Position numbers and translations under genes: made by a program. From assembly GCA_032718475.1 (NCBI GenBank), contig JAUCBJ010001974.1, positions 1-40,131 of the forward strand: a stretch of DNA of 40,131 nucleotides, read 5' to 3'. Under the pieces are notes generated by a model, which had not been told where the DNA came from, made no database searches, and worked only from the letters and a program-made list of their open reading frames with translations. Positions 8,100 to 35,859 of the stretch are shown here, piece by piece. This DNA is from Nemertoderma westbladi (taxonomy: Eukaryota > Animalia > Xenacoelomorpha). Position 1 is the first letter of the stretch; every line of letters begins with the position of its first letter.

Positions 8100-8100
8100 A

Positions 8101-8910: not shown

Positions 8911-8928
8911 CAGCTGCAACGGCCGGCC
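8883..8928 (+). promoter_or_regulatory. -1 programmed ribosomal frameshift signal
   Basis: G_GGA_AAC in the gag frame (8883-8889), 5-nt spacer, stem GGCCGGCCGTT/AACGGCCGGCC (8895-8928). Pol is in the -1 frame. Confidence 0.88.
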
Positions 8929-11900: not shown

Positions 11901-12008
11901 CCGGTACCTCCTACACCGCCGGTACTAACGCAAAGACCACCAACCCCAGCCCAACCGCCCGTACAAACTCGATCGGGCCGGACGGTCCGTCCACCCGAAT
12001 ATCTATAA
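8886..12008 (+). pseudogene. pol: Gypsy Pol (PR-RT-RH-IN) with one in-frame TGA at 9789-9791
   Basis: LVDTGA; GLFEFL*MPFGLKNA; YLDD; DASG and YSAFDRELLA; H-x3-H...CVPC; DLVGP, DRGSQF, VERFHR. Confidence 0.95.
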
Positions 12009-12022
12009 TACGTTTCGAGACT

Positions 12023-12030
12023 GGGGGGGG
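12023..12030 (+). promoter_or_regulatory. Gypsy polypurine tract
   Basis: G8 run 3 nt before the 3' LTR. Confidence 0.85.
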
Positions 12031-12033
12031 TCA

Positions 12034-12233
12034 TGTGGCAACCCGCATACATAACACATGTAATATACAGTCCCGAAACATTGTTATTACGGTTGCCTAG
12101 CAACCCTAGAGATTGAGTCTAGGCCCACCTACATAATGGTACAACAGGACTGCAGTATGCCATCAGCGATCGCTCGAACTTGAATCCGAGTTTTTCATAC
12201 GGTTTTATTTCGTGGCTAGACGCCATCTCCACA
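12034..12233 (+). repeat. Gypsy 3' LTR
   Basis: Direct repeat of 7900-8099. Confidence 0.97.
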
Positions 12234-12237
12234 ATGT

Positions 12238-12715: not shown

Positions 12716-13118
12716 CTGTACAATCTGAGCAGGGTTACACGCCTTCTGCTCAATATTAGCCTACTAGTAAATAAAACTGACAGAAATAGACCTAAGTAAA
12801 ATCCCAATAAAAACCAGGCGTCCCCGATTTAATATCGAGACCTACCGGTATATAATTATCAAAATCGTATAATACTGCTGTACCTGTACTGCTGTAAGTA
12901 CCGGTCCGGATGATCAGGCAGTCAGGCCTACAGATTACCGGTCGACCGGTACTTTAGTCTTGATCGCTTACGCCGCAATCAAGATCCTACAAACTGTTAT
13001 TGTTCTTACCAGAACAATATTAAACTTTATTTATTGCCTACACTGCAATCAAGAATTTTACAAACTGTTATTGTTCGCGCTTTTAAGACCTTTGGCAGTT
13101 TAACCCGCCAAATCTATA

Positions 13119-14238
13119 TGTCTTCTAGGTTATAAATCTACTCCAGCCTATGACAAGTATTGAACACCTATAATAATTCTAACATTAGCCAAAGCCAGTC
13201 TGTGCGCGACCATTCACCCGCTGGATATACCCGGGAGACTGGATTTGGATGCTTTAATTTGATTGCGGTGCAGGCCTACCGTACTATTCGATTGATCGTT
13301 AATATATAATCTCTGACGAATATTATTCACTTTCGGGAAATATTAGCAGTTCCTTTAGGACGTGGCGCTCTATCTATTTAAACAGAGCTATGACTTACAC
13401 TATACACAACAGTATGTCTTATAGATCACCAAAGTGCATTCTTTAGGAAATGCTTTGTTACTCGGTCAATCACACACAGACTATTGCACACAATTGCACA
13501 CTGAATTGCCGATATTCACTGATTTTAATCATATATAAAGAGAATAACAACCGACATTTGTAGGGCCTATTAAGTAGCATTGAACTCATTACAAACCACG
13601 ATAATGTATGTCGCAAATTGTTATATGTAACCGGTCTCTCTAACCTTAGTGTATCAAGAAGATTGGGGTTTCGGATCGTTATCAATATTCTTCCCAATAA
13701 TAATATGTAAACGAACGATACAATTAACAACACAGTAAATAGCAGTAAATAATGCAAGTGTACTTAACCAAGATAACAGTTTGATGAACTTATAATTAAA
13801 GACGCTCTAATGTTAGAAAACATTCCACGGCCGGTGTTCTTAGGCGTGGGGGAAACGTCAGCACTGAATCATGGGATTCTGCTGTACAGCTTTTACACAA
13901 AGGGAAAATCTCTGATTGGTCGAACTGACGTGGACACAGCTGATAGATGTCGTCATTTGAGCTGAGCAGAACAAAGAACCAAGGCTCCGTGCAGAGGCTC
14001 CACGTGTACAGCTCAGCTATTAGCTGTCGTCTTAGTAACTACACTGTTCCAAGAGTATTTCGGCTTTTGCGTCATGGAATTGCGGATTATGTCCGCTAAA
14101 GTACACATACAGAAGAAATTACTTTTATGTCCTCTAAAACACCAGTACAGTAAGGACACGGCCCTTTTATGCCTGGTAAACCAACTACAGAGTACTTCAC
14201 GGGGAAAATAACTGGCTAATTACGCAAAAGCCTTTACA
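13119..14238 (-). repeat. Putative 5' LTR of family A, copy 2
   Basis: Starts TGTAAAGGC on minus; contains a CCAAT-type box; tentative end ...GACA, 8 nt, TGGCGGG, mirrored in copy 3. Inner boundary tentative. Confidence 0.55.
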
Positions 14239-14477: not shown

Positions 14478-15803
14478 TTAAACATCACTTTCTGTAATTG
14501 GGCCTACTGTACTTTGTTTCAGAACTTCATAGGCAAGATCATTTTGGTTTGACTCAGTTAAAGCACGAGCGAACACACGGAAATCTTCAAATGATTTCTT
14601 CTTCATCATTTCAATTAGCTTAATATTTTTGTCTCGTCGTGTTCTGCATCTTCTGACCCTGTCGCATTCCAGCAAATCCAATACACCTCTTTGCTCGAGA
14701 ATAATAAGTAACACGCGGACTTCCATATACTCTGCCAACAAGGTTGTTAGGTTTGTTATAATTTCAACATGGGTTCTATTCTCATGAGCTGGAACCACCA
14801 GATCACTAACCAACCTCCCTGACTCCCCTTCAAGTTCTTTAGACTCCCTGTTTTCACCAGCTGTTGCACGATAGCGTGACTTTCTCGGTAGAGGCACTGG
14901 TGGGAGGACCGATGGACTAATAGTAAACTCCGCTGACCACGTTCCTTCTCCACTATTATTCCTGAGACGATCCACCCCCAATTCCTCAAATTCCCTGTTT
15001 TTACTTGCACCTGCAACATTTTTCGACATCCTCGGTGCTGCCACCGGTGGGCGCCCCGTTTGACTACTAATAAACCCCCATGACCCTGTTCCTTGTCCAC
15101 TATTATTCCTGAGACGATCCACGTCCAATTCCTCAAATCCCCTGTTTTTACTAGCACCTGCAACATTTTTCGATATCCTCGGTGCTGGCACCGGTGGAAG
15201 CACCGGTGCATGCGTCCAACTACTACCATGTGTATGCTGTACCGGCACCGGTGGAGAGGACGGTGGGTGCGCCAAACTACTAATACGTGATAGCCTCGGT
15301 GGAGACGACGGTGGGTTCGCCAAATTACAGTTTCCAGTCTGTTGCAGTTTCCCCAGTGGGTGTTCTCTTCCATTCCAAGTGGGATCATTTACAAGCGTAC
15401 AATTCAATTGAGATTGATCTTTGTCGATTTGGTTGAGTGCATCATAGAACTTATCAACATCGTCATGGTTATGAAATCCAATTACATAGGAGTTAATATT
15501 TTCTATGTTTACCCAATATGGGAAGTGTATGGGTAATGGAAATGGGTATGGGTAAACACCAGCGCGTATTGTAGTCTTTTGCTGTGGACCGCATTGTACA
15601 ATTTTTCCTTCGTTGGACGTATATATTTTGTTATTGAACGTATATAGTTTGCTCCAACACAGGGACATTGTTCTTTCATCAAAGGAAATCGCAAATTTTG
15701 AATTTTGGTAATCGCGTCTAATTTCGATAGCAACCTTGCCCATTTCATTAAGAGCAACAATTCCTTTCACTCTATCCGAAAGGGTACATGAATGGGAGGC
15801 CAT
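14478..15803 (-). CDS. Intronless protein: EVH1/PH-like N-terminus (tentative), proline-rich 49-aa repeats, C-terminal CARD/death-fold domain
   Basis: Intact ORF from ATG 15803. C-terminus LAEYMEVRVLLIILEQRGVL...TRRDKNIKLIEMMKKKSFEDFRVFARALTESNQNDLAYEV fits the CARD pattern. IGFHNHDDVDKFYDAL resembles the terminal strand-helix of EVH1. PPVPAPR repeats are 147 bp apart. Confidence 0.72.
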   Translation of the reverse strand: MASHSCTLSDRVKGIVALNEMGKVAIEIRRDYQNSKFAISFDERTMSLCWSKLYTFNNKIYTSNEGKIVQCGPQQKTTIRAGVYPYPFPLPIHFPYWVNIENINSYVIGFHNHDDVDKFYDALNQIDKDQSQLNCTLVNDPTWNGREHPLGKLQQTGNCNLANPPSSPPRLSRISSLAHPPSSPPVPVQHTHGSSWTHAPVLPPVPAPRISKNVAGASKNRGFEELDVDRLRNNSGQGTGSWGFISSQTGRPPVAAPRMSKNVAGASKNREFEELGVDRLRNNSGEGTWSAEFTISPSVLPPVPLPRKSRYRATAGENRESKELEGESGRLVSDLVVPAHENRTHVEIITNLTTLLAEYMEVRVLLIILEQRGVLDLLECDRVRRCRTRRDKNIKLIEMMKKKSFEDFRVFARALTESNQNDLAYEVLKQSTVGPITESDV

Positions 15804-15828
15804 AGCGTTGATATACACCAAAGTTAAT

Positions 15829-15996: not shown

Positions 15997-16747
15997 GTAC
16001 TGTACAATGTTTCGAATATTTTTAAATATAATTATCAAAATTTAAGATAAAAACTAACATCAATCAATTACAAAAAATTCTAGAACAATGGAATATGTGT
16101 TACAATGTTACTCACTGTAGTTGGTGTAATTATCAGATCCACTTTATTAGATTGTGCAGACCCAGACTACAAAAATACGTTTACAACATCCATGGTGGTC
16201 CAGCCCAGACTCAAAATTATGACGAAAAGTCATACGTGTTAAGTTAACTTTATAAGTAACAACAATGTAAGTTGAATTAAATGTAGTTATTACTGATTTT
16301 ATAAATGGTAAAATATCTGACATGCTGCCACACATGACCACCATACAGGCTGAGTGGTTTCTACTGTCCTTGCGCTTGTTTTGTTTTGTTATTGGTTATA
16401 ATATCTAGGTTACATGTGGTATAGGGCATAAGTAGGCATACAGTACTCCCTGTATTGTATAGGGCGTACATAGAGTATAACATACAGACTAACATGTGTT
16501 TATGGTATTTACAAATGATGCACTACTCATGATGCGTCTAGGCGGCCATCTTCCCTATGCTTGGTTGTGCCAAAAGTGGACGTGCAGAAATACACATGTT
16601 TAGGAGTTTGCAGTATATTTACAGTTTACAAGACTTATCAAACAGATTTACCAAAATAGTTTCAACAAGAAACAAGTAACTAAACGAAGTTGCAAGTCAA
16701 GTGACAATAAGTGAATGTGTAAGTGATAACCGAAGGCAAACCAGCCC

Positions 16748-16885
16748 TTTATATACTAAATCTAGGACATAGAATCCCCTAGAACCTTCCAGAGTATTCC
16801 ATGGCCTCACATTGGAGCAATAAGATGTTCTATGCCCTATGATTGGCCCAACTCATCGTTCCATGTGTTGTACGCACCTCATTGG
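16748..16885 (-). promoter_or_regulatory. Pol II promoter-like cluster (three CCAAT + TATA)
   Basis: Minus-strand CCAAT at 16885, 16846 and 16815; TATATAAA at 16755-16748. Confidence 0.45.
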
Positions 16886-16933
16886 TTTATCAATTTGTAC
16901 CAAATGAAAATAAATTGCCCCAAAATGCAAATT

Positions 16934-17004
16934 TCCCGACCGGGATTCGAACTCGTAACCTATCTGTAATGCAACCAACGCCTTAACCATCTGACCACTA
17001 TGCC
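16934..17004 (-). pseudogene. tRNA-derived sequence (SINE head or tRNA-like module of a repeat)
   Basis: A box TGGTCAGATGG and B box GAGTTCGAATCC at tRNA spacing; acceptor and anticodon stems do not pair cleanly. Confidence 0.7.
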
Positions 17005-17667
17005 TTGAGATTAACTACGGGTTTTATGTGTACTAATATGAATAGGCATATTACATTACTGTAACTTAATCCAAATGCGTCGGATTTTAGAAAGTTTTTA
17101 CGTTAAACTACAAATGCTATCTTATAGTGAAATAATCCATCACCGCTCCATGAAAACAGTAAGTAAGACTGTTTTCACCAATCGAAATATAAACTATTTA
17201 CAAAATACTTCTAAATCTACTGGTGGGGCCTAAAATATATAATAATCACTACCTAATTATTGCATACTTAATATTGCAGGTACGGCGTAAATACAATCCA
17301 TCATACATACAAAATACAAATTTACCAATTAACTTTAGTGCATAAAATACAAAAAAAGGCTTTCGGTTATCAATATAAGCAAATTAAACAAATCAGAACA
17401 AAACAAATCAGAACAAATCAAACAAATAATTTTAAATCTTTCAATAAGCTTTATATATTGCAAATATACATAATAAACTTCACCAAATTAAATCAGTCTT
17501 AAATATAGAATAAACATAATACGCTAATATCTTCCAAGTAAGTCTTAAAGTGTCCTCCTGACGATCTTAAAAGTTCGTCCTGCTGGTCTGGATATCTTCT
17601 CCTGAGCACTAATTGCTAACGGTAGGCTCGCAAGCCTTCCTTCTCTATCTCGCTCCTCCAAAACCAA

Positions 17668-17768
17668 TGTCCAATATAAAATACCCAAATATAATATCCA
17701 AATATAAATATCCAATATAAATATCCAATATAAACATCCAAATAAAATATCCGAATATAATATCCAAT
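17668..17768. repeat. Degenerate ~13-bp minisatellite (ATATCCAATATAA)n between two copies of the 20-bp motif
   Basis: About 7 units read directly. Confidence 0.85.
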
Positions 17769-17804
17769 CGGTAGGCTCGCAAGCCTTCCTTTCTTCTCGC
17801 TCTC

Positions 17805-20800
17805 CTATTCCTTGGCCGAACGGGCTCGTCCACGTCCTCTAGTACGATTGGGTGGTGGTCGAGATCGAACTGAGCTCGGACTTCGGTGTCGAGTTGTCGG
17901 TGGTTCCAAAACGCTAGGAAAGGGGACGACGGGAGTTTCGCACATCCGTCGTGCACTCAGTCCTCTAAATCCTCGTCCGATTCCAATCGTTGGCTTAACG
18001 TCAGATCGAGTCTCCACAACGCTGGGAGGAAGTCGAAAGGGTGGGACTGTTCTGTCCGCTGACACCTCGCTCTCTGATGTCGTTTGGATCCTAATGGGTT
18101 CCGGCAAAGCGTATCCTGTCCCTCCGTGTGGTTCTCTAGCGAGGGAAACCATGCCCCGAGTCATCTGGATTTGCGACTTCGATGTCGTCCTCTCGGCGAC
18201 ATTTACTACTTTCTTTATCTCTTGTCCGGCCTTCTGGGCTCTAAGTATACGAAGTTGCGGATCATCCTGTGGGTGACGCGTCTTTTCGGCTAACGGCGTG
18301 GCCTTGAAACCAGTCTCACGCAAAACGTCGGTCTCGTCTAGAATACACGAGGTTACGCATTTGTGATAAAATGCGCTCCTGTATGCCCAAGCTATCGAAT
18401 GCCAGGCTCCTCGATTCCGCTGTTCGACTCGCAATTTGTCGAATTCCCCGGCGGTAATCTTGTTCGCCACAGTTTGAAAGTTCCAAGTGTTCTTGTTGTT
18501 GGGGTGTACCTGTAGAAAGTAGTCCCGCACAACCTTAAATCCGCTATCCAGTGGCAATATATCCAGCACCTCCAAGAGCTCATCGTATTGAGGCATAGCT
18601 GACACGTATCCTTCGTTATTATGAGAGGGTTTACGGCCCAAAATCCCAAGTGTGCTCTCATAGGGAAACGGCGTCGCTGTGTCAATACATGCTCGTCTGC
18701 TAGATTCTCCCAATGGTCGAATAGCTGGCGAATGATTTTAACTGACATGTGCTCATAGGGGACGTCCCTAAGTTGACATTCGGATGCCCTATGACCTTTA
18801 ATATTACAATACGTGCACTGCGCCACGAAACGCCAGCAAGTGTAGAAAGTGTGCGAACGCTGATCCCCGCACCAGTTACATACTAAGTCCGGTAGAGATA
18901 TGTGTTTCGCTCCCATTTCTTTGCGTGGTGGCCAGTTGCCCCGCATCTGCCACAAATAGTGTTGGCAGGGTACCAAACTCGCTCATAGATAAGATCTCCG
19001 ATGGGGCGAGCGTTACCATCCACGTGATAATTCTCACAATCCGGGTCAGTCAGTATGTTCGTCTCCGTAGGTTGTACACAAACCATGGCATCGCTTTTCT
19101 CCAACTCGCGTATCTCAGTTCACGTCTTCCTTGGAAGGTTCTCCTCTATCTCTATGAGTTGCCGCAACGGTTCGTCTATTATCGCAAACTCGGTCGGATC
19201 CATATCGTCGTGATGGGTAGTAGGCTCATGAGCCTTCCAGGCCTTTGAATTCCGCGTGGCATTCCCCGTTGTAGGGTACTAACATTAACATCGACGGTCT
19301 GTCGACTAGGCTTCCCGCGTGAGTGAGAAAGACCTCCCTGAAAATGCTAAGTTCCGCTCGTGTGAAAACTTCGCAGTGCGCATCGGTGTTGTAAAAGGGT
19401 TGGAGAAATCGTCGGAATACATCAGTATGTGTCCTTCCTCCGTCGTAAAAGGTATGTCCTTCACCGAGACATAACGGATGTCGCTTTAGAGTCCTAGACA
19501 CTACATCGGCGATGAAGCAAACGTTGACCGAAGATTCTATCACCAAATAGTATTGCAAGATTATTCATGGAGGTGAAGTAATCGCCCAGTACACGCAACC
19601 TCGCCACTTTAGCTGTGACTCGAACTTGTTTACGCCGGGGGTATCTCCCTCTCCGTATACGTCCATGTATTTGCTCCTCTTACTCTCCTTATAATCCCAA
19701 CTGAATATTAGGTATGAGATATAACCCGTCCCAGTTTTTAGAGTGTTATACTCCCTAAAATATCCTTGCTCAATAGCCCAAAGCAACAATGGTCTAGTAT
19801 CCACGTATGGCGTAGGCAATCGATCATCTTCCATGGGCATTCCTGTGAAATCGCTAATAAGGTCATCCCGTACACCGGATCCGATCTTGACGATGCTCTT
19901 GTCAAGCACAACATCTCGTACAGCCTTTGGCAACATCCTAGCTTCTATGCTACAAGCCAGGTCCATGGATTTAACTATCCATTTTATCATCGCGTGTCTT
20001 TGCGTCGTTCCTTCCGGCATAGGCATCTTTCTATTGCTCCTCTGTCGGCTGAAGACATGTAACACGCCATCTGGTGCTCGAATCTGTATGGTCTTCGAAG
20101 TGAGGCTTTGCTGATGGCTTCCTCCTTCATTATCGTAAAACATATAACCCTAAATAAAGACTACTAAATATAAAATATATTCTCCTTCAGAGATCGGCTA
20201 GTCACGTCCCAATCGTCGAGTAAATCGTTGGTAGGGTTCCAAATTCTCCCTATGGACTTTTCATCATCGAAACTAATAGGTTTACTGGTCCAATTGGTCG
20301 CAATATCAGTGTCGGTCTCAAACGTTCCGACTCCAATCCATAATCGAATCGTTTTCGTCAGATATCCTCGCAAGATACAAGGTGCGATATCTGTCCCCGC
20401 ACGATCCACTTCCTTAAATTCCGTAATATGTGGAGGCACATTGCGTACGATTTTCTGAACTATTGTTCTACACAATTCGGCTGACTCTAACACATCACCA
20501 AAGGTAACCGATGGGAGGAAATCCAGGTTCGAAATGATCTCCGGGTGTTCAACTATAGGAATCTCATAAGTTGTCTCCTCTCGGGTCGGTATACTAATAG
20601 GAAAGCTGGTTGGTCTCACGACCGGTACTATCGCTTTAGTAGGATGGGGCTGAGATTCTCGCGTCATCTCGACATGAGGTATCTGTAGTCTCTGCGACAA
20701 ACGCTGAGCAAAGGTGATACTATCGAAGAGCTCGGGTGTCATCTCCTTAGGTTCAGTTTGATCATGGGATATCCAATAAAATGGTAGGCTCGTGAGCCTT

Positions 20801-21603
20801 CCGCCGAACTCCTCGATCTCGCCTTTCTCGCACGCCTTGTACGCCCTGTAGAGGCTCAAAGCTTCCCGTTTCTCTTGCGTCGACTTATTAGACTCGTCCA
20901 CTATCATGCTGTAGACGTCTGGTTCGACTAATTTGGGTTCGTAAATAACGATCTCACCCGCGTTCGGTCCACTCATCTTAAACGAATGGTACGGATTCGT
21001 CAAAGGGTATCCGCCTTCTTGGTAACATAGACTTTGGTGGTATGAGCATCGCGCTAATATCGGCTCGGGGTTCTCCGAGTTCAATCGCATAGGAATCGCG
21101 TTGTCTTGCTCGCGCATACATGCTCCACATTTGTAAAATAGTTTGTATATGGAGAACGCGTCCTTTGTCTCTGGATCCGCTCCTCGAGCGCGTCTATAAA
21201 GATGCATTCCATCGAATTCGTCCCTAGCTGCAGGCAAGGGTTCGTTTACCGTCAAATATTGCAGCGTATGATATAATCGGCGTATGTCTGTGTCTGGATC
21301 CTCGCAAATGTCACTGGCGTCGCATAACGCATCGTAGGGATACAACGCATTGAACTCCGCGTGTAATTCCTCCGCTCTTTTGTTATAAGCATCCAATTGC
21401 TGTCGCGTAACATTCGGGTCCGCCTTGTCTTTAGCGAGCTTGGCTGTACTCCTAGCCATACTCTCCACTCCAAACACACTAAAGTTTTTAGCTCCATAAC
21501 GATTAAACGGCGCCTGGTGCTCCTGTTCCTGCGTAAACCCCTGACGTAACTCCTTATAAATCTTCTCCGCCATTATATACGCGTATATATGGTTACATAT
21601 CAT
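17805..21603 (-). pseudogene. Accessory gene (~1250 codons): unknown N-terminus, DEDDy/WRN-like 3'-5' exonuclease, 3 CCHC knuckles, basic/Pro-rich tail; disrupted
   Basis: Abutting minus-strand ORFs join via a 56-nt GT-AG intron (20205-20150), in-frame TGAs (19567-19565, ~19120) and single-base frameshifts (~19245, ~18914, ~18630). Motifs: YMFYDNEG, TIQIRAPDGVLHVF, LPKAVRDVVLDKSIVKIGSGVRDD, YVD; CGRCGATGHHAKK(C), CNWCGDQRSHTFYTC, CTYCNIKGHRASEC. Confidence 0.7.
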
Positions 21604-22264
21604 TACATTTCTACTAGATGAAGCACAAAATAGAGGTTAGATGTGAGGTGACTTAGAGTTTGTCGGCTTTTGGCTCAACTTTGCTCTAAAACCCCAACCC
21701 ATTTGCCTAATGACTTCGGGTTCGCGTGATTTCGCACTGGCTCCTAATCCAAAAAATTGTGCTGATAAAAAACGAATTCCGGGTAAACTAGCCACAAGTC
21801 TAAAATACTCACCTTTTAATTTCCCAAACTACATTCCCAAAGAAATAATGCAGTCGAGAATTAATTCGGTCTAAATAATAGTAGACACGACTACGTAGAA
21901 CAAGGCCGGTTTTCTTTTCCAAAAAAAATTTATCGGTAGGCTCGCAAGCCTTCCATCCGCTCTTGTCCTCCCCAATTTTAATTTTTATCTAGCTGTATTC
22001 TAGAATTCGCATTCACTGGAGAATCATTTTTCTTAAATTTAAATCCAACTAAATGGATTTGTCTAATAATTTTTGAAAAATTGTCTCACTTGTGGGTTCC
22101 AAGTGGAATTCCATTCCTACTGTACACACAATCCCGCTCCTATGTGATACATAAGGGTACTACCCTCCATGTTCACATATAAAGACAATGGAATTCCACC
22201 GCTGTCTCTATCTACTGTGAAGAGGATTACAAATGCACATACAGTAATACAAAATACCAAATTA

Positions 22265-23530
22265 CTAAAATAAGGTAAGTCTATGTGGAGATTTGTAGTC
22301 TCCTGTCTCGTTTCTAGTCTCCTCAAGGAGTATGAGACGTTGTACAGGTCTGTCTACGGTACATCCGTCGATAGTCCTTACAGTAACTGTCCTTACTACA
22401 CCAGTGGTCAAAATGACTCCAGTCAGCCAAAACCGTCTTTTCAGATCGGCTTCAGCCAATAAAACATGGTCACCGCGTCTCAAACATCGGGTATTAAGAT
22501 ACCAAGAGGTTCTGGTCGAAATAGAGGGCAAATAATACTTCTGCCATATTTCCCAGAATTTACATGCAAGTAGCTGAGTGATTTTCCAAGCTTTGTTGCC
22601 GTATCCGTCGCTATTAACGGGTACCGAAATGGGCAACAATGTCGTCGGCGCCTGCATAAGCAGGTGCGCTGGTGTCAAGGCAAACTGTGCGTCGTTATTG
22701 TCTGGGATCAAAGCGATCGGTCTAGTGTTCAAAATCGCTTCGATTTCTATTAACAATGTCGTCAGTTGGTCGTCTGTCAAGATGTGTTGCGTCGGTATTA
22801 ATTTAGCCATAGCTGTCTTGATTGAGCCAATCAGCCTTTCCCAAACGCCGCCTCTCCACGGACTGTCTGGAGTGTTAAAGTTCCAAACAATATGGTGAGG
22901 ACGTAGTTCCTCGGAAATCTGGTTTTGGTCCAACTTTCTTAAAGCTCTGGTTATTTCATTCCGTGCACCCACAAAGTTTGTCCCTTGGTCACAGTAAATG
23001 GATTTGACCAATCCACGTCTAGCGATAAATGGCCGTAAGGCTAGGATAAAGGCATTGGTGGTCAAGTCTGTCACATGCTCAATATGGACAGCTCTGCTGG
23101 CCATGCAAGTGAAGATTAATCCCCAACGTTTTACTTGTACCCTTCCGCGTTTCTCGATTATAGGTCCAAAACAGTCTATCCCTGTCTCAGTGAGAGGGGG
23201 TCTAAATGCCTGTATTCTCGCTAGTGGTAGTTCAATCATTTCTTGGTGTCCTATCCACGCGTGCACCTTCTTACAAATCATACAGTTCCGTGTTACCGAA
23301 CTCAGTGCCTTGCTAGGCCTAATCAGTACGAATCTCGTGCGTAAGTGTGATAAACAGTGATGTCTACCTACGTGTTTGAGTCGTACATGTGCGTCCAGTA
23401 TCATAGCGCGCTGTAACTCATGGTGTTGCGGTATGATGATAGGATACCTAAAGTCAAGTGCAAAGTCGATGTTTTGGAGTCTGAACTTGTGACAAAGTAA
23501 GCCCCTATAAATAATCGGACTCCAACTCAA
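22265..23530 (-). pseudogene. pol: BEL/Pao integrase
   Basis: HVRLKH...CMIC, GIDCFGP, FTCMASRAVH, CDQGTNF, WRGGVWERLI, RPVQRLILLE. Confidence 0.95.
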
Positions 23531-24114
23531 AATCGGTGAAGACTTGATCTGTTTACCTTGGTTGATCGCTGTGAATTCTCATGCGAAATATCGCAATTGA
23601 GAATGGCGAATGATATCAACTTCACAATGACCAACTTCCTTTAAGGTAAGTCTTCTAGGAAAGTCGCGTTTGCCTCTGGCATATTGTCTCAAACGTTTGA
23701 GCCATGCTAACTTGCGGCATGATCTAGTTAGGTTTACTATCCTGTCAACGTAAGTGTTAGTGACGTCATCAGGTAAGGTATAGTCATAGTGTGGATACTT
23801 GTCTGGACTTGGTAGGCCCACGGGCCTTCTGGTAGGTTTGTCTGAGTCCCCAAGTATGTCAATCTCCACGGTCTTACCCTTACTGTCCGCACACCTAGTG
23901 AGTCGACTGGCAGTAACGGTTTAAACTCTACAGTGTTAGTGTGTTCCTGTGAGCCTGTAAGCTTCCTAACCTTAGTTACACGTTTACCTGTAGGTGGTAA
24001 GTCAAGTATTTTCTTTGAGCGGAGTGTGATCGCTGTGGCCACACCTTTGTCGTCCAATGAAGTCAAATTCGGTAAGTTTCTAATTGTCCGCTCCAATGGG
24101 TCTTCTACTGGAGT

Positions 24115-24580
24115 GTCTAGTAGACAGTCTGGTGAAGCGTCCAGTGAACAGTCTGGTGAGACGTCTGGTGAGACATAGCGCGGAACTTCCGGCGAAATGT
24201 CCTGTCATCGGTCCTAAAGAAAGTCTGGCGTAACTTCTGTCGGAAAGTCTGGTCTAAAGTCTGGTCTAAAGTCTGGTCTAAAGTCTGGTCTAAAGTCTGG
24301 TCTAAAGTGTGGTCTAAAGTCTGGTGGACAGTCTGTCGAGATGTCTGGTGGAAAGTCTGGTGAGACGTCCGGTAGACAATCTGTCGAGAGTTCCATAAAA
24401 CAATCTGGCGAACAATCCGGAGAACAATCTGGTGTCTCTTCTGGTGAATAGTCTGGCGAGTAATCTGGTGAACAATCCGGCGAAACGTCTGGTGAAATCT
24501 CCCGCGGAACATCCGGTGAAAGATTTGTACAAGCGTCTGGACGAGATTCTGGTGAGACGTCTGGCATAATGTCAGGTCTA
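24115..24580. repeat. 12-bp coding minisatellite (AAAGTCTGGTCT and variants; Pro-Asp-x-x) between RNase H and integrase
   Basis: Five perfect units at 24244-24303 within ~38 degenerate units. Confidence 0.92.
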
Positions 24581-25560
24581 GCATCCAGGTCATCAGATTT
24601 CGTCCATCCTTGTTTCCTCTTGACCTTGGCATTGGCTTTCGCTTTAGATTTGACAACCTTGTCGCTTTTTATCTCGGCACCCTCTGGTATGGTATTGGTT
24701 GTCGCGTCGAATAACGGTGGCCATTCGTCTGATGGTCGCTGTAGGAAATCGGGTCCTCTAAACCAAAATGATTTATTGTCTGGTTTACAAAAGTCAAGCG
24801 GTTGCATCCCCCGTGACGCGATGTCAGCTGGGTTCAGCTTCCCGTGACAGTGACGCCAATCTTGTTTGAGCGACCGGTCTAATATTTCAGCCCGTCTGTT
24901 GGCTACAAAAGTCTTGAACTCAAATGCTTCGTTGTTTATGTACCAAAGTACCAACGTCGCATCCGTCCAATATGTGACCTTCAAGTTAGCCTCCAGCTTG
25001 TGTTGAACTAGACTGACAATATCGGTGGATATCGTCCCGGCTTGCAGCTCTCCACGAGGTACAGTCATATACTTCAAAGGCATTGTTCTAGCCCTAGAAG
25101 TAACGAGAGACACATCGTAGCTGTCCGATGTCACTTGTCGTCTAAGGTATAAGGTAACCCCCAACCCACCCTTGCTAGCATCACTAAAGCTGTGAAGCTC
25201 TAAATCAGCAGGAAAGGTGGTCTGCAAATGAAAGTATACCCTTGGTATGGTATAGTCTTGTAGGAACGTCAGTAGGGCTTCCCAGTCCCTCCATTGCTCA
25301 GCTAACTTTTCTGGGATGGGATCGTCCCATTCCAGTCCGGCTTGCCAAATGCTGCGGAGTATGATCCTAGCATGTACGATCACTGGACTAATGAAACACA
25401 ATGGGTCATACAATCGACTCATGGTCGATAAGCAAGTCCTCTTAGTGAGAGGTCTAGTCTGGTCGTTGGACCTTACACGTACCCTAAAATTGTCGGTGTT
25501 AGGGTCCCAACTAAGTCCTAATACTTTGGTCGTAGGTAGAGGTTCTAGGTCTAAGTCCAA
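24214..25560 (-). pseudogene. pol: BEL/Pao RT thumb / RNase H region
   Basis: KVLGLSW, YDPL, FSDAS, VPRGEL, YWTDA, NPADIASRG. Confidence 0.93.
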
Positions 25561-26390
25561 GTCTCCTCCACTGCGATCAGTCGGGTCAAATGAGTCGGGT
25601 CTAGTTCGGGTTCGTTGGAAGTGAACTTCGTCAGGCGGAATCCGCCCTCAGTGAGACAATCCTGGAGTTGGTGTGCTACGGTTGTAGTGCGCTCCAAAGT
25701 GTCACAACTCTTGAGGCCGTCATCCACGTAGAAATCTCGTTCCACGGTCCGAACTACTTCTGGGTCAAATTGATCTCGTCTGTCCAATGCTGTCTGTTTT
25801 AAGGCGTACATGGTGCAGTTGGGGCTGTCCCTGGCTCCGAAAACTCTTACCTGCATTTGGTAAGTTTCTGGCGGAAGTTCTAAATTTCCGTCCGGATACC
25901 AAAGAAACCTTAAACTGTCCCTGTCCCGCTCCAAAGCCTTAACCTGGTGAAACATGGCCTCTACGTCACAGGTGAAAGCCACTTTGCGTTGTCTAAAACG
26001 CATTAGGACTCCCATGAGGTAATTATTCATATTCGGCCCATCCATCAATTCGCTGTTCATAGACATTCCTTGGTAAAGCGCAGCGCAGTCGTTGACTACA
26101 CGCACCTTGCCAGGTTTGTCCGGGTGTCGAACAAAATGATGTGGCAGGTAATATGTCTGATCTGTGGTTACCTCGGGATTTAACATCCTAATGGCGTATC
26201 CCTTTTGGAGATATGTCTAAAGTTGCGCATTGTATTGCATATGGGCCGTCTCATCTCGCAACAATCGCTGTCTTATTGATTTGAGTCGCCTCAAAGCAAG
26301 CGGGTAATTGTTAACGAGCTTAGGTTGTCCATTGCGCCACAACATGCCAACCTCGTAGTGGCCATTCGCGGTCTGGCGAATGGTATCCCT
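25551..26390 (-). pseudogene. pol: BEL/Pao reverse transcriptase
   Basis: HYEVGMLW, YYLPHH, KVRVVNDCAA, DVEAMFHQV, FGARDSP, DFYVDD; stop codon near 26218. Confidence 0.95.
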
Positions 26391-26522
26391 CATAATATTT
26401 AATATATAATAATAATATATAATATTTAATGTATAATATTTAATATTTAATAATATTTAATAATATTTAATAATATTTAATAATATTTAATAATATTTAA
26501 TAATATATACATAATATTTAAT
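26391..26522. repeat. AT microsatellite expansion (TAATATTTAA)n interrupting pol
   Basis: CATAATATTTAAT at 26391 and 26510; 119 extra bp; removal restores KWSLNIMRDTIRQ. Confidence 0.9.
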
Positions 26523-29500
26523 GACCATTTCATTAATGACCCAGGTTCTGCTGAGTCCTGTTCTAACCATTGAATGTTCCATTCAGTCAGCAGTCGGTCA
26601 AGCGCTGCTTGCACTGCGCCATGGTCCTTGTCCACGTCTTCGTCCGCTGCGGTGGCTAGTGAGGCCAATGTGTCTGGTAGGCTCGCAAGCCTTCTGGTGT
26701 CACTAGTCGGCGTCGAATCGTCGTACGGCGGTTTGACAACTTCTTTATCTGTCGGTAGGCTCGCAAGCCTTCCAAGATCAACGACCGGTGTCGAAGCCTG
26801 GTGGGTGGGGTCAATGACCTTCGGATTTTTCGGTAGGCTCGCAAGCCTTCCAAAATCCTCATTCATCGAGTCATCCACAGCAACAACCCTTTGGTCTTCG
26901 GTAGTCAATACAACCTGGTTTACAGCAAGTAGTTGTAAGTCAGAGGTCCGTGTGGTTGTGTCCAGATCAGTTACGTCAGTATCGGTTACGTCTGCGTTAG
27001 CGACGCAAGTCTGTCGTAGTGCAGTATGTACAATTGGACCACAGGAGTGTGAAGGATAATTATCTATCGTGTTAGTCAGTAAACTACACGTACTCAAAAC
27101 GTCGTCCTCCTGGTCACTTACCTCTAGTGAACGTACTGGTGCTCTAGTATACCAACCTATGGGAGTTCTACATGCGTAGGGGTTGCCCGCTGTAATAACA
27201 GATGGGCGTGTCTCCCATACCTGATGTAAGTTAAACTGGTCTGTCCCAATTAACATCGCGATTGAACGATAATTAACAGGACATTCCGGTATTCCAAGGT
27301 GTCGGAAATACTTGCGATCTTCCGGTGATTGCTCTGGCACAGGGCCGAGCAAGTTACTAAAGTCCTTCATAGCTGCAAAGGTTAAATTTCTTACTGGAAG
27401 TAATGAGCGCTCTTCCTTGCTGTGTTCCGCTTTGGAAAGAAGAGTGTCTAAGGTTAGTTTTACTCTCGTCACTGGGATCGCTCTCTTACCATGCATGCTG
27501 CTTACAGTAACTGAGCAGTCTTACCTTGACTCATGTCCGTAACCACGTCGGCTACTTGTTCGTCGACATAACTATGCAATGACGCAGAGTCTAAGATAGC
27601 GTATATACGCTTGCTCCCTCGGGTTCCGGTAATCTTTATAGGAATCACGCTAAACCCTTTCAATTGGTTCTGTGTGAGGAGTGTTACCGATGGCTGTTCC
27701 TCCCCCGCATGCACATAAAATGTGTCGTCTTCCTCCTCGTCCTCGTCCGATGATCCCGATTGGTTCATACAATCCGCATAGAAAGTACGAATCTCTCGCG
27801 GCGCACGCTCCTTGTAAAGTACGTCGCATCTAGCCGCTTTATCTGGATGCTCTCGTCGAAAGCGTTTGGTCGGAGTATGACTGGTTGTGTGAAGTAACGC
27901 GTCATGGTTACGTCCACATAGAGAACATGTATCGTCGCTTGGGCAATCCTTCCGGACGTGTCCTGGCTTCGTACATCTCCAACAAGAATCCAAAGATCAA
28001 ATTTGAAGTCTTCTTTCTTCGATTCCTAACTCCCTAAAAGCGCGACATCCACGTAGTTTATGTCCGCTATGGTTCCTGCCGTTCCGCTCGCAGTATGAGC
28101 ATCCCACAAAGTCCACTGGCAACTGTTGTTGTGGCTGAACTAGTTGTCAGAACTTTAGAAGTCTCAGTAGAGGTGGCATAGGTAACGGCTTTCGCGCTCG
28201 TCAGAAGTGGTTTAGTCCGAGTCGGCGCAGAAATAGCTATCCCTTCTGCCGCGATATGGTGATCAGTGTAGTTCGATCAAGTCTCTATGACGGCCTCCCG
28301 CGAAATCAGTTAGTAGACGTCGGTGAGTTTCAGTAGACCGCCGGCCTCTTCACGCTGGTACTCGATGCGTCGCCATTCTCGTCGAAGTCGATGATGAAGT
28401 CTACCGATTATTCGAATGAGAACTGTCGGTGCGTTAGCGTAGTCGAGTTGTCCAATGGACCGTAAAGTCCCTATAGCGTTCTTTATTTCGTCCGCGAGTC
28501 GTAGAAGGTTGATAGGTTTCGAAATGCTGCCTCCTCTGCAGAGGTCTTCGATAATGGATTTAGCCATGGCGACGTTGCCACCATAAATCGAATATAGACG
28601 GTCATATGCCAACTCAAAGGCATCTGGAACACCGATGAAGGTTTCCGCTAATCGTTTCGGCTCACCAGACAGGACTTGTAGGAAGTAATTAAACTTCTCC
28701 GTCGAGGTGAAAGCACACATAGCGATCTGGGACTCTACGTAGTCTACCAGTGTACGCCAGTGTTTTGCGTTGCCAGAGAACTTCGGCGGTTGTTGTGCCG
28801 GTAATCCGTGTCTAGCCGCGAATTTTGCAATCTCGCTAACTAAATCCAACTGTCCGCGTCCCTGTTCGGTTGCGTCGTCCAGTCGTTCCCTTCCACGCGT
28901 TGTTCGTCGGTAGGAAATATTAATGGGATCTTCTTTTCGATGGTTCGGAGTCTGTCTAGTCTCCTGTTCTCTCCTTGGTGGTCGATGTTGTCTAGGTTGT
29001 TCTAACTCCACGCTGGTTCGTGATCGATCCGACGGTTGCGCTTCGAGTCGCTCTTCTATCTGAGCTAGTCGGTCCGTTACAGGTCGTATTATTTCGGCGA
29101 GTCTGTTGGTGCTGATCGCTTCCACTGGTTGCAACGTGGGTTTCTGTTGGGGTGTTTCTCGTGGAGGATTGTCGATGTATGGATTCGTCGATCTCTCCTC
29201 CCGTTTGTAATCCGCTGCCGCTGCCACTCCAGTACGGAATACTTCCCGTTCCGTCGACTCCGAGTCACTGGATGAGTCGCTGTCATCCGGATAAGGTGGT
29301 TGGCGGTTTCGCGTCCGGCGTATTACTCTTTGTCTTATTTGTTGAGGTCTAGAATCTACGGTTCTCCGTCGTTCGGTAGGCTCGCAAGCCTTCCACGAAG
29401 TCGTAGGTCTCGTTAAACATTGTTCGATCCTGTGGGTACTGTCCACATCCGTCCTCCTCCGTTGTTCAGTAGGCTCGCAAGCCTTCCACGAAGTCGTAGG

Positions 29501-29587
29501 TCGCGTCGAACATTGTGTCAAAGGTCTAATAAAGCTGTCGTGTTTTGTAGTCGGTCTATAAATAACTGGGTTCGCACAGCACGTCAC
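26523..29587 (-). pseudogene. gag: Family B Gag, zinc knuckles, protease and linker (frameshifted)
   Basis: PPKFSGNAKHW...EKFNYFLQVLSGEP; CWRCTKPGHVRKDC, CSLCGRNHDALLH; AILDSAS; MLIGTD...TPIGW. Confidence 0.9.
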
Positions 29588-32500
29588 AGGTTTAACTTAT
29601 CTGTATAACACACTGGTGTTACCTTTCTCCTAGTAACGGGTTTTTCACTTACCTTACTTTCCGGTATCTTTTCTCTAGACTGTTTTAGGAGCTGTAATCT
29701 TACCTCTCCGTTTAAGAACGACATAAGATCAGCCATGGTAGGGTCTCTATGTTGTTGGTCCATCAGATAGAGAACCTTTTTGTCTCAGCGAGTACCTACT
29801 CCACTCTTTGGTAAAGTTGATGCTACGGCTCCTACAACCATAGAACTCTGGTATTCCTGAGACTTACCCAATCAGTCTAGCTGTCTACAGATCTCCTGAA
29901 TCTCATCGGAAAACTCTATAATCCCGCTGCTAAGAAACTTTCGGGCCGCTACTAATTTCGCATGCAGATATCTAGCTATGTTAGTCTTATTACCATACCT
30001 GATGTATAACGTATCCCAAACTTGTCTCAATCCATCTGGATGTGCAATAAACTTTAACGCCATTAACTTGGGAGGTCCTTCCAAGCACTCGATGAGGAAT
30101 CGTAGTTTCTCTCCACTGGATAGTACGGAGTTCTGTATGTTATCTTTGTAATATTCATTAAAAGGTAACCACTTCATCTCATCTCCATTGAACTTGACGA
30201 CCTCTCCCACCTTTACCGCTTGACGGGCTTCCGTTCTAGCCATCTGACGTGTAAAACTTTCATGAGCCATCATATTATTTAATATCGAATTATCGGTATA
30301 TAAATTTCTCAGATTATTATCAGATCAGTATGGGATATCATTATCAACAGGCTTATTAATACCCTTAATAGGGTTTACTATCGGAGTTTCTACTTCGCTA
30401 GCAGTATAGATGTATATAGGCTCCACACCTTGCGCATGAAATACTTCAGACCTAATGGGCTGACACATTGTTACAAAGGGTGGTGGTATACCCATTTGTA
30501 TATTTACTAATTTATCGTGCTCGAGAGCGATATTTTGCTGTACTTCTTGCAGCTCTAACCTACTCTCTCTCACTGTTCCCTTTAACAGCTGAACAGTCCC
30601 TTCCAATTCTCGGACTTGTTTGGAAGATTTTATCTTGTTGTCTTCGAGTTGTCCGAGCAACTGCTCCATCCCCCGTCGTCCCTTGTCCATCCACTTAACC
30701 ATGGAGGCGGGAGTATTTGCCAATGTCGTAGCTGGATGGCACATTGGGACGACGGGAGACATTGCGTTTATTATCTCTTGCTTGGCGTCCATGACTATCT
30801 GAGATTCTGGCAGTTGTCTACTGGGCACAGGTAGTTTGGTACTGTGTAAAGGGAATTTCGAGTTAGATTCTGGAAGTAAAGGGGGTTCTATCAAAGGAGT
30901 GGCTTCGCTAACAGGCCTAATTATTTCTGACTCATCTACTATAGTAGGGAGTCTTTCTACTCTTATAATTTGGGCTGTTGGCTCTCGAATACTTAAGTCT
31001 ACACTAGCTAGCTCCCTTCTCACAGCAGGGGGTAAGTTAGGTAACTTATGCCTATGAGGTGCTCTTCTATGTCCGTTTGAACGAGATTGATTACTTTTAC
31101 CTTCGGGATCAGTTGTATCACCTTTATCCGAGGAGGTAAATCCCTGTCTTCTGGGAGTAGATCGACTCAGTAGTTGCATCTGAGTAGCTGCCCTTTGTTT
31201 ATTTAAGTAATCTTGTTTCGCCTGAAGGTTCTCCAACTCTAGTTGGACTGTTGCTTCAGATGCCTTCCGTTCTGCTTCTACCACTGCCGCTGCTGCTGCT
31301 GCTTTTCTTTCAGCTTCAGCCGCTGCCCCGCCGCTGCCGCTTTTCTTTCAGCTTCTGCCGCTGCCGCCGCCGCTGCCGCTTTTCTATCAGCTTCTGCTGC
31401 TGCTGCTGCCGCTGCCTCTTTTCTTTCAGCTTCTGCTGCTGCCGCTGCCGCTGCCTCTTTCCTTTCAGCCTCTGCCACTACCGCTGCCGCTGCCACTGCT
31501 ACCTTTCGGTCTTCTATTTGTTTTTTCTTTATTTGTTCTTCTTTGTCCATTGCGATGAGAAAGCTTTCATCAAATTTAGTCTGCTTCGCGGCTAATATCT
31601 CCGCATCTAAAGAGTCCAAAATAAATTTGGCACCTTCACTATTGGGGTGAAGTCCAGCTAGCCGTCTCCTTAGCTCTTTGTCACCTATAAATCGTTGATA
31701 ATCCGACAGATAGATGTCAATAGCATCCTTCTTCTTAGGTTTTTCGGATACCGCCTTGCCTTCCACATGAGAAAAGGTTGCATCTGTTGATTCTCCGTGG
31801 GTTATGCGTTCAGTTTGCTGAACCCTCCATTGTGTTGTTCCCTGGACTTTAACATTCACTCGTTGGAACCAAGTCTTTACAGCCACTTGCAACAACGTGT
31901 CTTGACTTCTCTTCGAGGCCTCTTCAAAGGCTGAAAGGATTAACCTGATTCTCAAGATACGTTCTCTCACTTGGTAAAGCAGCTCTCCCTGCTCTTGAGG
32001 TCCCTGAGGTTGTTGAAATAATTGAATTTCTATTCTTTCCAAGGAGTTGAAGAATCCCTGGACATATCCTGCTGCTGACCTCTTCCATGCAGCGGGATCT
32101 CTGGTGTCCCTCACTACCCCCATTTGGTATAAGTCTTCCCAGGCAGCTTCCGATAAGTTAAACGGGAGTCCGGGTCCAGGGAAGTTCCATTGAGTCTCTA
32201 CAATAGACCTTAGTTCTTCCATCGGGTATCCTGCATAACTGTCCCTGGTCGATCTCTTATTTCCCATCCAATCCGCTTGATGTTCTTCTACAGCTGCAAG
32301 TACTCTAGTGAGTATGGCCCCAGGAAGAATTAGAAGTGGGTCTGGATAAACCGCTTCTTCCATCCTTGTTCCGATCTCGGGCATTAACTCTTTGGTGTCG
32401 GAACTAGAGTTACTATGCAGTTGAGAAATAAGTTCTCGGTTCGGGTACTGTTGTTGTTTTGCAGCCATCTCTTGGTCTCGCTTAACTTGAGCCCTAGTGC

Positions 32501-33012
32501 CTATAATAGACCTATGGTGCTATAGTAGCCTAGGGTCCGATACCACTACTGTAGGGATAACCTTTCTTACAGTAGGAGGGGACTTAGACTTCGATCTGGG
32601 ATGTTCCATACTTTGATCTGGGTCACAGATCGTTCTTTCTAAGAGACTAACTGACAGTGTTTGTTTTGTGTCAGACATAATTTATTTTACAGTTGAATGC
32701 CTACTACTATAATGACAGTTAAAGAAAGTCTAGGGGAAATCAGTATCAACTGTCAGTCTAGTAGTTACCGATATCGCTACTCAATGTAACGTGGTATATA
32801 TTTAATATTAGAATACCGGTATACACCTGTAGTATATATAACAGTATTATTACAGACTAGGATCAGTCACAGAATACCGGTATATAAGTTTAGCCTAATT
32901 TATATAATTATAATAAGACTTCTGCTCAATATTACACTTACCGGTAAATAAAACCAACAGAAATATGTAAGCACTAAAAGAAATAAGGGGTGTACAGGCC
33001 CTACTCTCTTAA

Positions 33013-34575
33013 CCCTATTAAACCCGGGGGGGGGGGGGGTGGGGTCAATATGACCCTTCCCGTGGTTTTTTTATTATAATTCTGAAACAAACGCAGTTGG
33101 GAATCTGAAATTTTATGACTTTTCCTAAAAATCTATTGTCTTCCTAGTAGTGAAAACCGTTTTCAAAAATATTGGGTACTTATCGAGTTATAGCACCATA
33201 TTTTAACCCTACTTTTGGCACTTTTTTTGAGACGTTTTTTGAAAATTACATTTCATTAAATATGAATTGTAACATCTCTATTTTTGATTTACACCGGTTT
33301 TTTGGTGTTAGAAATTGGATGGAATTCATGTAAATTGATTTAGAAATTTCAAACTTGTTTTTTTCGGTGGGTGCCAAATTTTGGTGCCAGCACCAAATTT
33401 TGAAATAAGTCAATTTTGTAAATTGATTGTTTGAAACTTGTTTTTTACGTAATTGGGGTTTTTTGGGGTTCTGGATTCGATGAAATATATACGAGTTGCA
33501 CCAAGCGTATCAAACTTGTATTTTTCGGTGCTGTGTGCAAATTTTGGTGCTAGCACGAAATTTTGAAAATCCATTCAATAGATAAAATTGCTTGTGACAA
33601 TTTATTTCTTGCGGTTTAGAGGTTTATGGCTGTTCTGAATTCAATGGAAAATATAATTATCGAACTGGACATCTCAAACTTGTATTTTTCGGATGTGGGT
33701 GCAAAATGTAGTGCTAGCACCAAATTTTGAAAACCATCAAATATATCAATTGATTGTGTCACCTTGTTTCTTGAGTTATACGGGTTTGTGATGGTTCTGA
33801 ATTCAATGTAATCAGTAAAAATTTCATAAGAGTTCTCAAACTTGTATTTTTCGCCGGTGGGTGAAAATTGTTGTGCCAGCACCAAATTTTGGAAAATATG
33901 CAAATTGATAAGTAGATAGTATCGCCTTGTTTCTTGCGTTATACGGGTTTATGAGGGTCCTGAATCCGATGGAATCAATAAAAACAGCACTGGACATCGC
34001 AAACTTGTACTTTTTGGTGATGGGTACGAAATTTGGTGCTAGCACCAAAATTTGCCAAATTACGCCGAAAAATACAAGTAGCAATGATCTGGCATATTAG
34101 AAATGTATTCCATTAGAATCAGCGCCCTCGAAAACCTGAAAATGTGAATTTATAGCATCGTATAAGTGAATTAAAAATTTTGTGTTCTAACTGAAAAGTG
34201 CTGGTTACTTGTTTTTTTCATTTTTTTCCTACGCAGTGAGGACTAAACAGCCATTTATAGTAATCATATCATTTTTTAATATTTTCCAATGTATTTTGCA
34301 CCCCAGAAAACCTGTATTAAAAATATTTAGCCGAAAATGTAACTTTCAAATTTTGTGAAAATTGTGCACTACTTGTAATTTTGGTGCTGCAATATAACCA
34401 CCCCAGTACATTTTTTCGAAAATTTTTTTTTCGGTCGGATCCAGACAAGTGATACCTACGTACAAACAAAAAATCAGACGTTTTCGTAAATATTTGTAGA
34501 TTTTAGAGGGTGGGGTCAATATGACCCCCCCCCCCCGGTATTTGTACAACATTTTATAGCCCGGTACTAATAGGG
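33013..34575. mobile_element. piggyBac-type MITE, complete, with internal ~162-bp tandem repeats
   Basis: TTAA|CCCTATTA...TAATAGGG|TTAA (TTAA at 33009-33012 and 34576-34579). Subterminal palindrome GGGGTCAATATGACCC(C) near both ends. AAACTTGTWTTTTT units at ~33351, 33511, 33677, 33838, 34001. No transposase. Confidence 0.9.
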
Positions 34576-34766
34576 TTAAACAGCCTACTAATATACAATA
34601 TATACAATCAAATAATACTGGGTAAGTACCGGTTCGGGTTACTAGGCCTACAGTTTACCGTCCGACCGGTACGTTCGATTTTATTGCCTACTGAGCAATA
34701 AAGAAACTAAAATCTATTAATGTTCGCCCTTTCAGACCTTTAGCAGTTTACCCTGCCAATTTTAAA

Positions 34767-35859
34767 TGTCCTTTTTATTATGAATCGACTTTGCCCGTAC
34801 CAATTACCTGGTGCACTGAATTTACATCTGCCGAAGCCAGTCCGAGCGCGGCGTATGACCCACGGTGTGGGAGACTGGATTCGGGTTCCGGAGGAAATAT
34901 TGAGGTGTAAGCTACTTTGTATTATTCGATTGATCGCTACTATATAATCTCTGACAACTATATTTACTTTCGGGGAAATATTAACAGTTCCTTTAGGACG
35001 TGGCGCTTTAAGTATAAAAACAGAGTTATGATTTACACTAATCACAAATAGATGGCCACAGAGTTTCGTAAATAGCGCATTCTTTAGGAGATGCTTTATT
35101 AACCTTCACACGACTTCACACTACTTCACACTAATTTACACAAATTCACACTAATTTGCCGACCGTCACTGATTTTGATCATATATAAGGAGGATTGCAA
35201 CTGACACAAATAGGGATTATGAAATAGCATTTAATTCACACAAAACCCACTATAATTTGAGTCACAGTTGCAACCGGTAAACTCTTTCACTGCTTACCTC
35301 AGTAATCAAGAAGATTGAGGGGTTTACGATTATTTATCGGTATTTTCCAAATATAACATCCATTAATATAAACAACAATTAACACAATATAAAACAGGAT
35401 TAAAACAGTGCGGTGAACAGTCAGTATGTGTTCATGAAGTTCAGTGTTCCAGTATGACAAGTGTATGATCAGATATGCCCCGATGTGGTTTGCATGTGTC
35501 AAGTTAATAGATTTACGTCCTTATAACTCCAGCCATCAGATGTTCTAGGGCTAAAGTCTGAAACGTCCGTACTTAGTACAGAATTCTGAGAGGAATCTAA
35601 TTCTCAGAAAAACGATAACTAAATGCGCATGCGCTAGTTTCCTCAGGTAGGTCTCTACTGGTATAACTAGGAAGATTGCTCTGATTGGCTGAATAAGCTT
35701 GAACAAAGAGATCTCCACGTACACAAAGAATCAGCTGAAAGATTTAGTCATCTTGGTTCTAATTTCTTTCCGACGCGTAGTTGAACAAATTTAGGGCTAT
35801 TTTAGAGTATTCTGCGCATTGCGTAAAAATGACTTGTTATGTCCGCAAAAGCTTTTACA
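34767..35859 (-). repeat. Putative 5' LTR of family A, copy 3
   Basis: Starts TGTAAAAGC on minus; homologous to the other two copies; inner boundary tentative. Confidence 0.55.

Follow-up and report, generated by a model that had tools for sequence, protein, structure and literature searches.

A dispersed, co-oriented 20-nucleotide near-palindrome in a BEL/Pao retrotransposon of Nemertoderma westbladi

Introduction

How long terminal repeat (LTR) retrotransposons distinguish RNA or DNA of their own from that of the host or of rival families is poorly known outside of a few models. Here we describe a 20-nt near-palindrome that recurs in 11 co-oriented copies along the internal region of a BEL/Pao LTR retrotransposon, called family B, in a stretch of 40,131 nt from Nemertoderma westbladi (contig JAUCBJ010001974.1, positions 1 to 40,131), hereafter the window. 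The motif is a real and unusual feature that is probably functional, and we tentatively read it as a hairpin in the sense RNA by which the element tags its own transcript.

Dispersed packaging signals are known in MS2, picornaviruses, and the pregenomic RNA of hepatitis B virus; many small stem-loops along the genomic RNA, also within coding sequence, are read there by the element's own protein (PMC6281560). The layout in family B is alike, with protein binding being our proposal, although the signals in that source are degenerate and of variable affinity whereas the 20 nt found here are nearly identical from copy to copy. The targets of VANC in the Arabidopsis VANDAL transposons share with the motif its apparent family specificity, many internal copies, tandem amplification, and an accompanying extra protein of unknown fold (PMC5735166). 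VANDAL, however, is a plant DNA transposon with non-coding motifs of 8 to 9 bp, whereas family B is an animal retrotransposon with a 20-bp dyad that also occupies coding linkers (8 of the 11 copies lie within open frames). Tandem amplification is common to both, as 7 of the 11 copies fall in three local duplications. By analogy, the motif may work like dispersed packaging signals or VANC targets, and as far as tested it is a member of neither.

The element also has relatives in outline. In the bdelloid rotifer LTR retrotransposons Juno and Vesta, ORF3 is a DEDDy exonuclease-like open reading frame (ORF) downstream of pol, as is one of the ORFs of family B. The DEDDy clades named in PMC5408684 are Juno, Vesta, TelKA, and Mag, as opposed to BEL/Pao here, and family B differs further from the rotifer ORF3 described there in having CCHC knuckles after the exonuclease domain and a second, orphan ORF. 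The strings 'hairpin' and 'palindrom' are absent from the text of that paper. Egalitarian offers an analogy only: its exonuclease-homology domain contacts stem-loops non-catalytically, including the signal of the I factor retrotransposon, but this host protein depends in addition on LOTUS-like domains and BicD, and its signals are without overt shared sequence (PMC13186709). Among the titles and abstract openings searched, no such repeated motif is reported for BEL/Pao or any LTR retrotransposon, and the literal motif sequence occurs in none of the full texts searched.

Copies of the motif

The sense strand of family B is the minus strand of the window. The motif is a contiguous 20-mer, with 9 matches at up to 3 mismatches against 0.00 in 100 shuffles; the pattern as spelled in an earlier note on this DNA, read with N at its dashes, has 0 matches in the window. 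The 11 starts listed in that note are exact (17621, 17770, 19219, 20783, 21935, 23811, 26676, 26754, 26832, 29375, and 29468), and a scan of both strands at up to 6 mismatches returned a single orientation for all of them and no further copy in the 40,131 bases. The copies are situated as follows.

17621 to 17640, minus strand: motif copy in the 3' untranslated region, with 17770 as its partner on the far side of an AT-rich spacer; the 20 nt on its sense 5' side are purine-rich
17770 to 17789, minus strand: motif copy directly past the last accessory ORF piece
19219 to 19238, minus strand: motif copy with 4 differences, within accessory ORF-B, past its exonuclease-like part and ahead of the knuckles
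20783 to 20802, minus strand: motif copy with 2 differences within accessory ORF-A, read as GRLTSLP
21935 to 21954, minus strand: motif copy in the non-coding gap from integrase to ORF-A
23811 to 23830, minus strand: motif copy with 5 differences, two of which form a compensatory pair, in the enlarged linker between RNase H and integrase
26676 to 26851, minus strand: three motif copies (26676, 26754, and 26832) in diverged 78-nt tandem units of the linker between protease and reverse transcriptase (RT)
29375 to 29487, minus strand: two motif copies (29375 and 29468) spaced by 93 nt, at the 5' end of the gag-like ORF

In order of their starts, the copies differ from the modal 20-mer by 0, 0, 4, 2, 0, 5, 1, 0, 0, 0, and 1 letters; 13 of the 20 columns are invariant, and C or T invariably precedes the motif. 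Under a covariance model made from the 11 copies, these score 30.6 to 41.5 bits, by construction, and the best other site 9.5 bits. Family A, the Gypsy element, the long interspersed nuclear element, and the miniature inverted-repeat transposable elements (MITEs) of the window are thus without the motif, and the confinement to family B claimed earlier holds with the 40-kb window as its scope.

With the local duplications 17621/17770, 26676/26754/26832, and 29375/29468 each counted once, the 11 copies represent 7 independent sites. These are 1152 to 2943 nt apart, and their spacing is more even than random (P of about 0.011, uncorrected for domain avoidance, which contributes). The uniform orientation supports less than the earlier note implied: for 7 independent sites, its chance is about 1 in 64, and copying within retroelement RNA would keep orientation anyway.

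Two features adjoin the copies. Purine-rich 20-mers (16 to 18 of 20) occupy the sense 5' side of the three non-coding copies, at 17641-17660, 17790-17809, and 21955-21974, and could be polypurine-tract-like or accessory signals; the corresponding 20-mers of the coding copies have 8 to 13 purines of 20. In the 93-nt duplication (29350-29525, minus strand), both units open with a third-frame ATG (MFDATYDFV and MFNETYDFV), so that a short upstream ORF running through the motif is possible from the reading frame.

The host element

By its domain order, family B is a BEL/Pao LTR retrotransposon. On the minus strand, Pfam and tblastn give gag (DUF1759, CCHC), protease, RT, Pao RNase H (Peptidase_A17), integrase, and DUF5641, the protease being weak and read by eye.

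28310 to 29596, minus strand: gag-like ORF with DUF1759 (Pfam E 6e-09)
27502 to 27996, minus strand: gag zinc knuckle and start of the protease, its motif read by eye
24214 to 26390, minus strand: RT and Pao Peptidase_A17 (RNase H) region, interrupted by stops and frameshifts
22265 to 23730, minus strand: integrase with H2C2 finger, and DUF5641; best relatives at most 42% identical
16600 to 17200, minus strand: candidate 3' LTR of family B, at a peak of contig depth, with a tRNA-like piece inside and no motif copy
29600 to 29682, minus strand: junction to family A sequence, an 88% match to 4157-4239

The analysed copy is decayed by stops and frameshifts, and among the 150 database relatives listed for its integrase the closest are no more than 42% identical. 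The 5' LTR and primer site are missing from it, replaced by family A near 29600, and self-BLAST of the window found no LTR pair for family B. The tRNA-like piece in the candidate 3' LTR (16930-17010, minus strand) has A-box- and B-box-like words, read by eye, and a peak of contig depth; ARAGORN and Rfam made no call there. A long 12-nt coding repeat of PDFR/PDCS type at 24090-24590 stretches the RNase H-integrase linker to about 350 codons, compared with about 100 or fewer in relatives.

Contigs were mapped to 16500-26380, a region with 6 of the 11 motif copies, for 4 of 7 runs. Contigs from three studies of one organism fill all 30 bins of this region. In run X1, 2646 of 11,379 contigs match at 99% identity or above, 3745 at 95-99%, 3567 at 90-95%, and 1421 below 90%; from this spread it follows that family B has many diverged copies in its host, and it is a multicopy family there. 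Among the 40 of 1158 substitutions and 12 of 128 indels listed, none is inside a motif, which is uninformative with about 0.5 substitutions expected.

Beyond the host, searches point to a motif that appears lineage-specific, absent from distant BEL loci and proteins. When metagenomes were scanned with the integrase, 9 loci were returned, 8 of them at 35-38% identity and one a short match at 52%; none has the motif, the two weak L016 matches being in unrelated flanking DNA. The RT search of viral contigs had no match, and the motif peptides in three frames are in none of the 150 BEL relatives listed. The motif itself has 9 single matches in viral contigs and 2 in prokaryote genomes, which we read as chance.

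Conservation of the motif

The motif is conserved far beyond its surroundings. The earlier observation that flanks are unrelated stands for the independent sites, at an identity of 0.26 to the left, 0.89 in the motif, and 0.25 to the right (n=50 non-tandem pairs). The old 78-nt tandem units show the same within repeats of shared origin: the motif is identical at 19/20 and 20/20 positions compared with 29/58 and 25/61 in the rest (Fisher p 3e-4 and 8e-7), or 95-100% compared with 41-50%. Between these coding units, the third position agrees in 13 of 14 codons inside the motif versus 15 of 40 outside, where only 1/20 and 6/20 residues are identical.

The copies also avoid conserved domains. All five gag-pol copies lie outside of them, and across 81 long BEL polyproteins the alignment coverage at the gag-pol copies is 0, or 4/81 for the bin of 23811. 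For all three gag-pol clusters to fall outside of conserved blocks, the chance is 0.036. The coding copies use two frames as had been stated, although the frame at 29.4 kb is without an early Met and that at 19219 is what a broken ORF leaves open over 52 aa, so that translation there is putative. Since three copies are non-coding and two frames are in use, an explanation at the level of the protein is rejected.

Most of the variation within the motif is linked to CpG. Differences from the modal 20-mer occupy 11 of 55 cells in CpG-linked columns and 2 of 165 elsewhere, and these last two are the halves of the compensatory pair in 23811. A CpG-decay context is found in 9 of 16 near-fixed T/A-for-C/G transition rows (of 18 listed) versus a background of 0.23 (p 0.004). 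CpG sites are hypermutable in family B, which suggests host methylation.

The cis-signal inferred in the earlier note is therefore upheld at the nucleotide level by third codon positions, by the mix of non-coding copies and two coding frames, and by domain avoidance; the form of the signal was left between an RNA hairpin and a DNA dyad, and neither is demonstrated. Selection on the motif is the simplest reading of these comparisons, with gene conversion between copies as an alternative.

Folding and loops

The predicted hairpin has a loop of four bases on a 5-bp stem, followed by an A-A mismatch and a 2-bp outer stem. In isolation the modal copy folds alike on both strands, at about -9 kcal/mol. 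Five of 8 stem pairs never vary, and variants of the outer pair are G-U in two copies and a mismatch in two on the sense strand. Sense-strand loops are UGCG in eight copies and CACG, CAUG, and CGUG in the others, so that 11/11 copies belong to the YNHG class on this strand compared with 3/11 on the other. YNHG is the viable loop class of a hairpin bound by a viral protein, domain d of enterovirus oriL, with UGCG and CACG among the commonest loops (PMC5633025); that hairpin is a single one within a cloverleaf, and its stem and virus are unrelated to ours.

Known RNA families were considered as well. Rfam gave 0 matches at gathering over the window and 0 at E<=1 over 16400-18200 and 19000-29700. 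Rfam families and tRNA genes were rejected as the identity of the motif, with no covariance-model or ARAGORN match, and the histone 3' stem-loop, to which there is some resemblance, had no Rfam covariance-model match.

Accessory reading frames

Two accessory ORFs follow the integrase on the sense strand.

20164 to 21636, minus strand: accessory ORF-A, about 470-490 aa, an orphan with no homologue, family, or usable model
17805 to 20149, minus strand: accessory ORF-B, in pieces, with a WRN/EXD-like DEDDy exonuclease-like N-part (19568-20143), CCHC knuckles at about 18.8-19.0 kb, and an orphan C-part

ORF-B has DEDDy-type exonuclease homology downstream of pol, a weak match at the level of sequence. 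Its N-part reaches an atlas score of 0.93 to DNA_pol_A_exo1/WRN-like clusters, with 24 of 30 matches in that family. A profile of bacterial WRN-like exonucleases (9 rows, one of them, L055, read in the wrong frame) ranks ORF-B first at 12.1 bits (E 0.003), and the best of 500 shuffles reaches 3.1 bits. Pfam and PDB searches of the N-part returned nothing. One of the CCHC-like knuckles is a Pfam match below cut-off, and two were read by eye. Homologue searches were empty for ORF-A, the protease-RT linker, and the N-terminus of ORF-B; PDB and phage searches were likewise empty, and no DNA-binding domain was found in ORF-A.

What the motif may do

Our preferred explanation, to which we give somewhat less than even weight, is that the motif is a sense-RNA hairpin used as a self-tag by the BEL/Pao element. 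The hairpin would recur every 1-3 kb or so along the sense RNA and be bound by an element-encoded RNA-binding protein, either the Gag knuckle or the exonuclease-fold/knuckle ORF-B. Binding would single out the transcript of the element, package it into particles, or protect it, in a family-specific manner; family A, which has gag and protease and lacks most of pol, is without the motif. A unit of 20-21 nt may have been copied by template switching or slippage during replication, in addition to tandem duplication, and copies may have persisted in gaps outside the reading frames and in linkers with room for seven more residues. What is observed directly is that the copies share one orientation, are spread over the internal region, are conserved more than their flanks, and lie in variable linkers and gaps. 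For an RNA tag in particular speak the YNHG loops of the sense strand, the uniform orientation, the fixed asymmetry, and the candidate RNA-handling domains that the element encodes; the five stem pairs that never vary, the compensatory pair of 23811, and the even spacing also count in its favor.

Several results weigh against such a tag. Folding in context favors the sense strand for two of the five flank sizes and the other strand for three. The covariation check suggested earlier is not significant: the compensatory change in 23811 is real, but it is a single one, and 311 of 500 shuffles reach one compensatory pair. The 92% pairing is equalled in 493 of 500 shuffles. In 26676 and 23811 the sense strand has a mismatch at the outer pair, which on the other strand is G-U. 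The loop bias may stem from a single event, since the copies probably descend from one source. No binding protein for the motif was identified. The exonuclease alignment of ORF-B spans about 52 residues, one of three exonuclease blocks, in an ORF that is broken in the analysed copy, and two single-sequence AlphaFold models, with pLDDT (AlphaFold's confidence measure) of 30-35, were too poor for a fold search. Finally, deletion derivatives with the joint 17935-21011, present in two runs, are without two sites and most of the accessory ORFs, and therefore not every site is needed in every copy; the depth of this joint in run X3 is 1685 compared with about 20,000 in its surroundings.

A more elaborate form, which we think unlikely, has the tag and an accessory protein as a matched pair, with a barcode hairpin every 1-3 kb, including coding linkers, and an exonuclease-fold/zinc-knuckle reader sorting, transporting, or protecting self RNA from host surveillance. 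If true, this hairpin-reader pair would be an RNA-level counterpart of VANC self-recognition. Should an accessory protein read the tag, it would make a compact protein-RNA or protein-DNA tag pair and give a function to captured DEDDy ORFs, whose role is left open in PMC5408684. Being nearly invariant over 20 nt at seven sites, the tag lends itself to direct testing with one probe, two strands, and three candidate proteins.

Alternatively, and with less weight than the RNA tag, the motif may be a 20-22 bp double-stranded DNA dyad for a dimeric protein (ORF-A or a host factor) that would spread open or unmethylated chromatin in a VANC-like manner. The dyad has no spacer, variants at its outer positions form G-U now on one strand, now on the other, depending on the copy, and growth by tandem duplication resembles that of VANC targets (PMC5735166), although VANC motifs are 8-9 bp long and located in non-coding parts. 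The CpG hypermutability that suggests host methylation fits with this explanation, as does an observed/expected CpG ratio of 1.08 in family B versus 0.65-0.79 in family A, but the Gypsy element keeps its CpG too (1.18) without such a motif. A symmetric dimer site gives no reason for one orientation or for the fixed T/T asymmetry (11/11), the symmetric double change in 23811 is unexpected from independent half-sites, and ORF-A offers no DNA-binding domain.

We regard it as rather improbable that the motif is a neutral by-product, an RT-stalling hairpin copied into tolerant parts of the element and homogenized among them by template switching or gene conversion. This would explain why the entire 20-mer is identical at sites that are otherwise unrelated, with the single orientation coming free; 3 of the 7 sites are local duplications, and the center of 23811 is the reverse complement of that of 20783, as strand switching would give. 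Strand switching should, however, erase the fixed mismatch, which is present in 11/11 copies, and in tandem units that have otherwise drifted in both bases and amino acids, conservation stops abruptly where the motif ends. The 5 other regions of the window have no such dispersed word, and neither have 8 of the 9 distant BEL loci; that of the ninth is a duplicated contig-scale repeat.

Least probable by far is that modules of the element are shuffled or deleted by recombination or breakage at the dyads, as lox-like module joints or DNA-elimination motifs: the sites are near module boundaries and palindromic elimination motifs are known in nematodes (PMC13370393), but none of the 15 of 105 joints listed is motif-to-motif, none of the 24 of 1224 loose ends listed is at a motif, no recombinase domain was found, and tolerance also explains the boundary location.

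Neighbouring elements of the window

Just beyond the 3' end of family B and on the same strand, 14478-15827 (minus) is a single open frame of 449 aa; it ends in a CARD domain (E 6e-09) and contains an internal repeat of 147 nt. A host gene, a retrocopy, and cargo are candidates for its identity.

Family A is a BEL-like element present at 2485-6476 and 29620-32519, with LTR-like copies at 54-456, 13030-13747, and 34680-35256. Its gag and protease join almost directly to the RNase H end, and for this reason it is probably non-autonomous. At about 29600, its second copy is joined to family B at the 5' end of the latter. A young Gypsy element with 203-bp LTRs that are 99.5% identical is inserted upstream of the family A gag at 7900-12236.

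At 33010-34580 there is a MITE with TTAA at both ends, which by these ends we take to be piggyBac-like. It contains internal tandem units of 162-164 nt, and a related repeat is found at about 950-1750.

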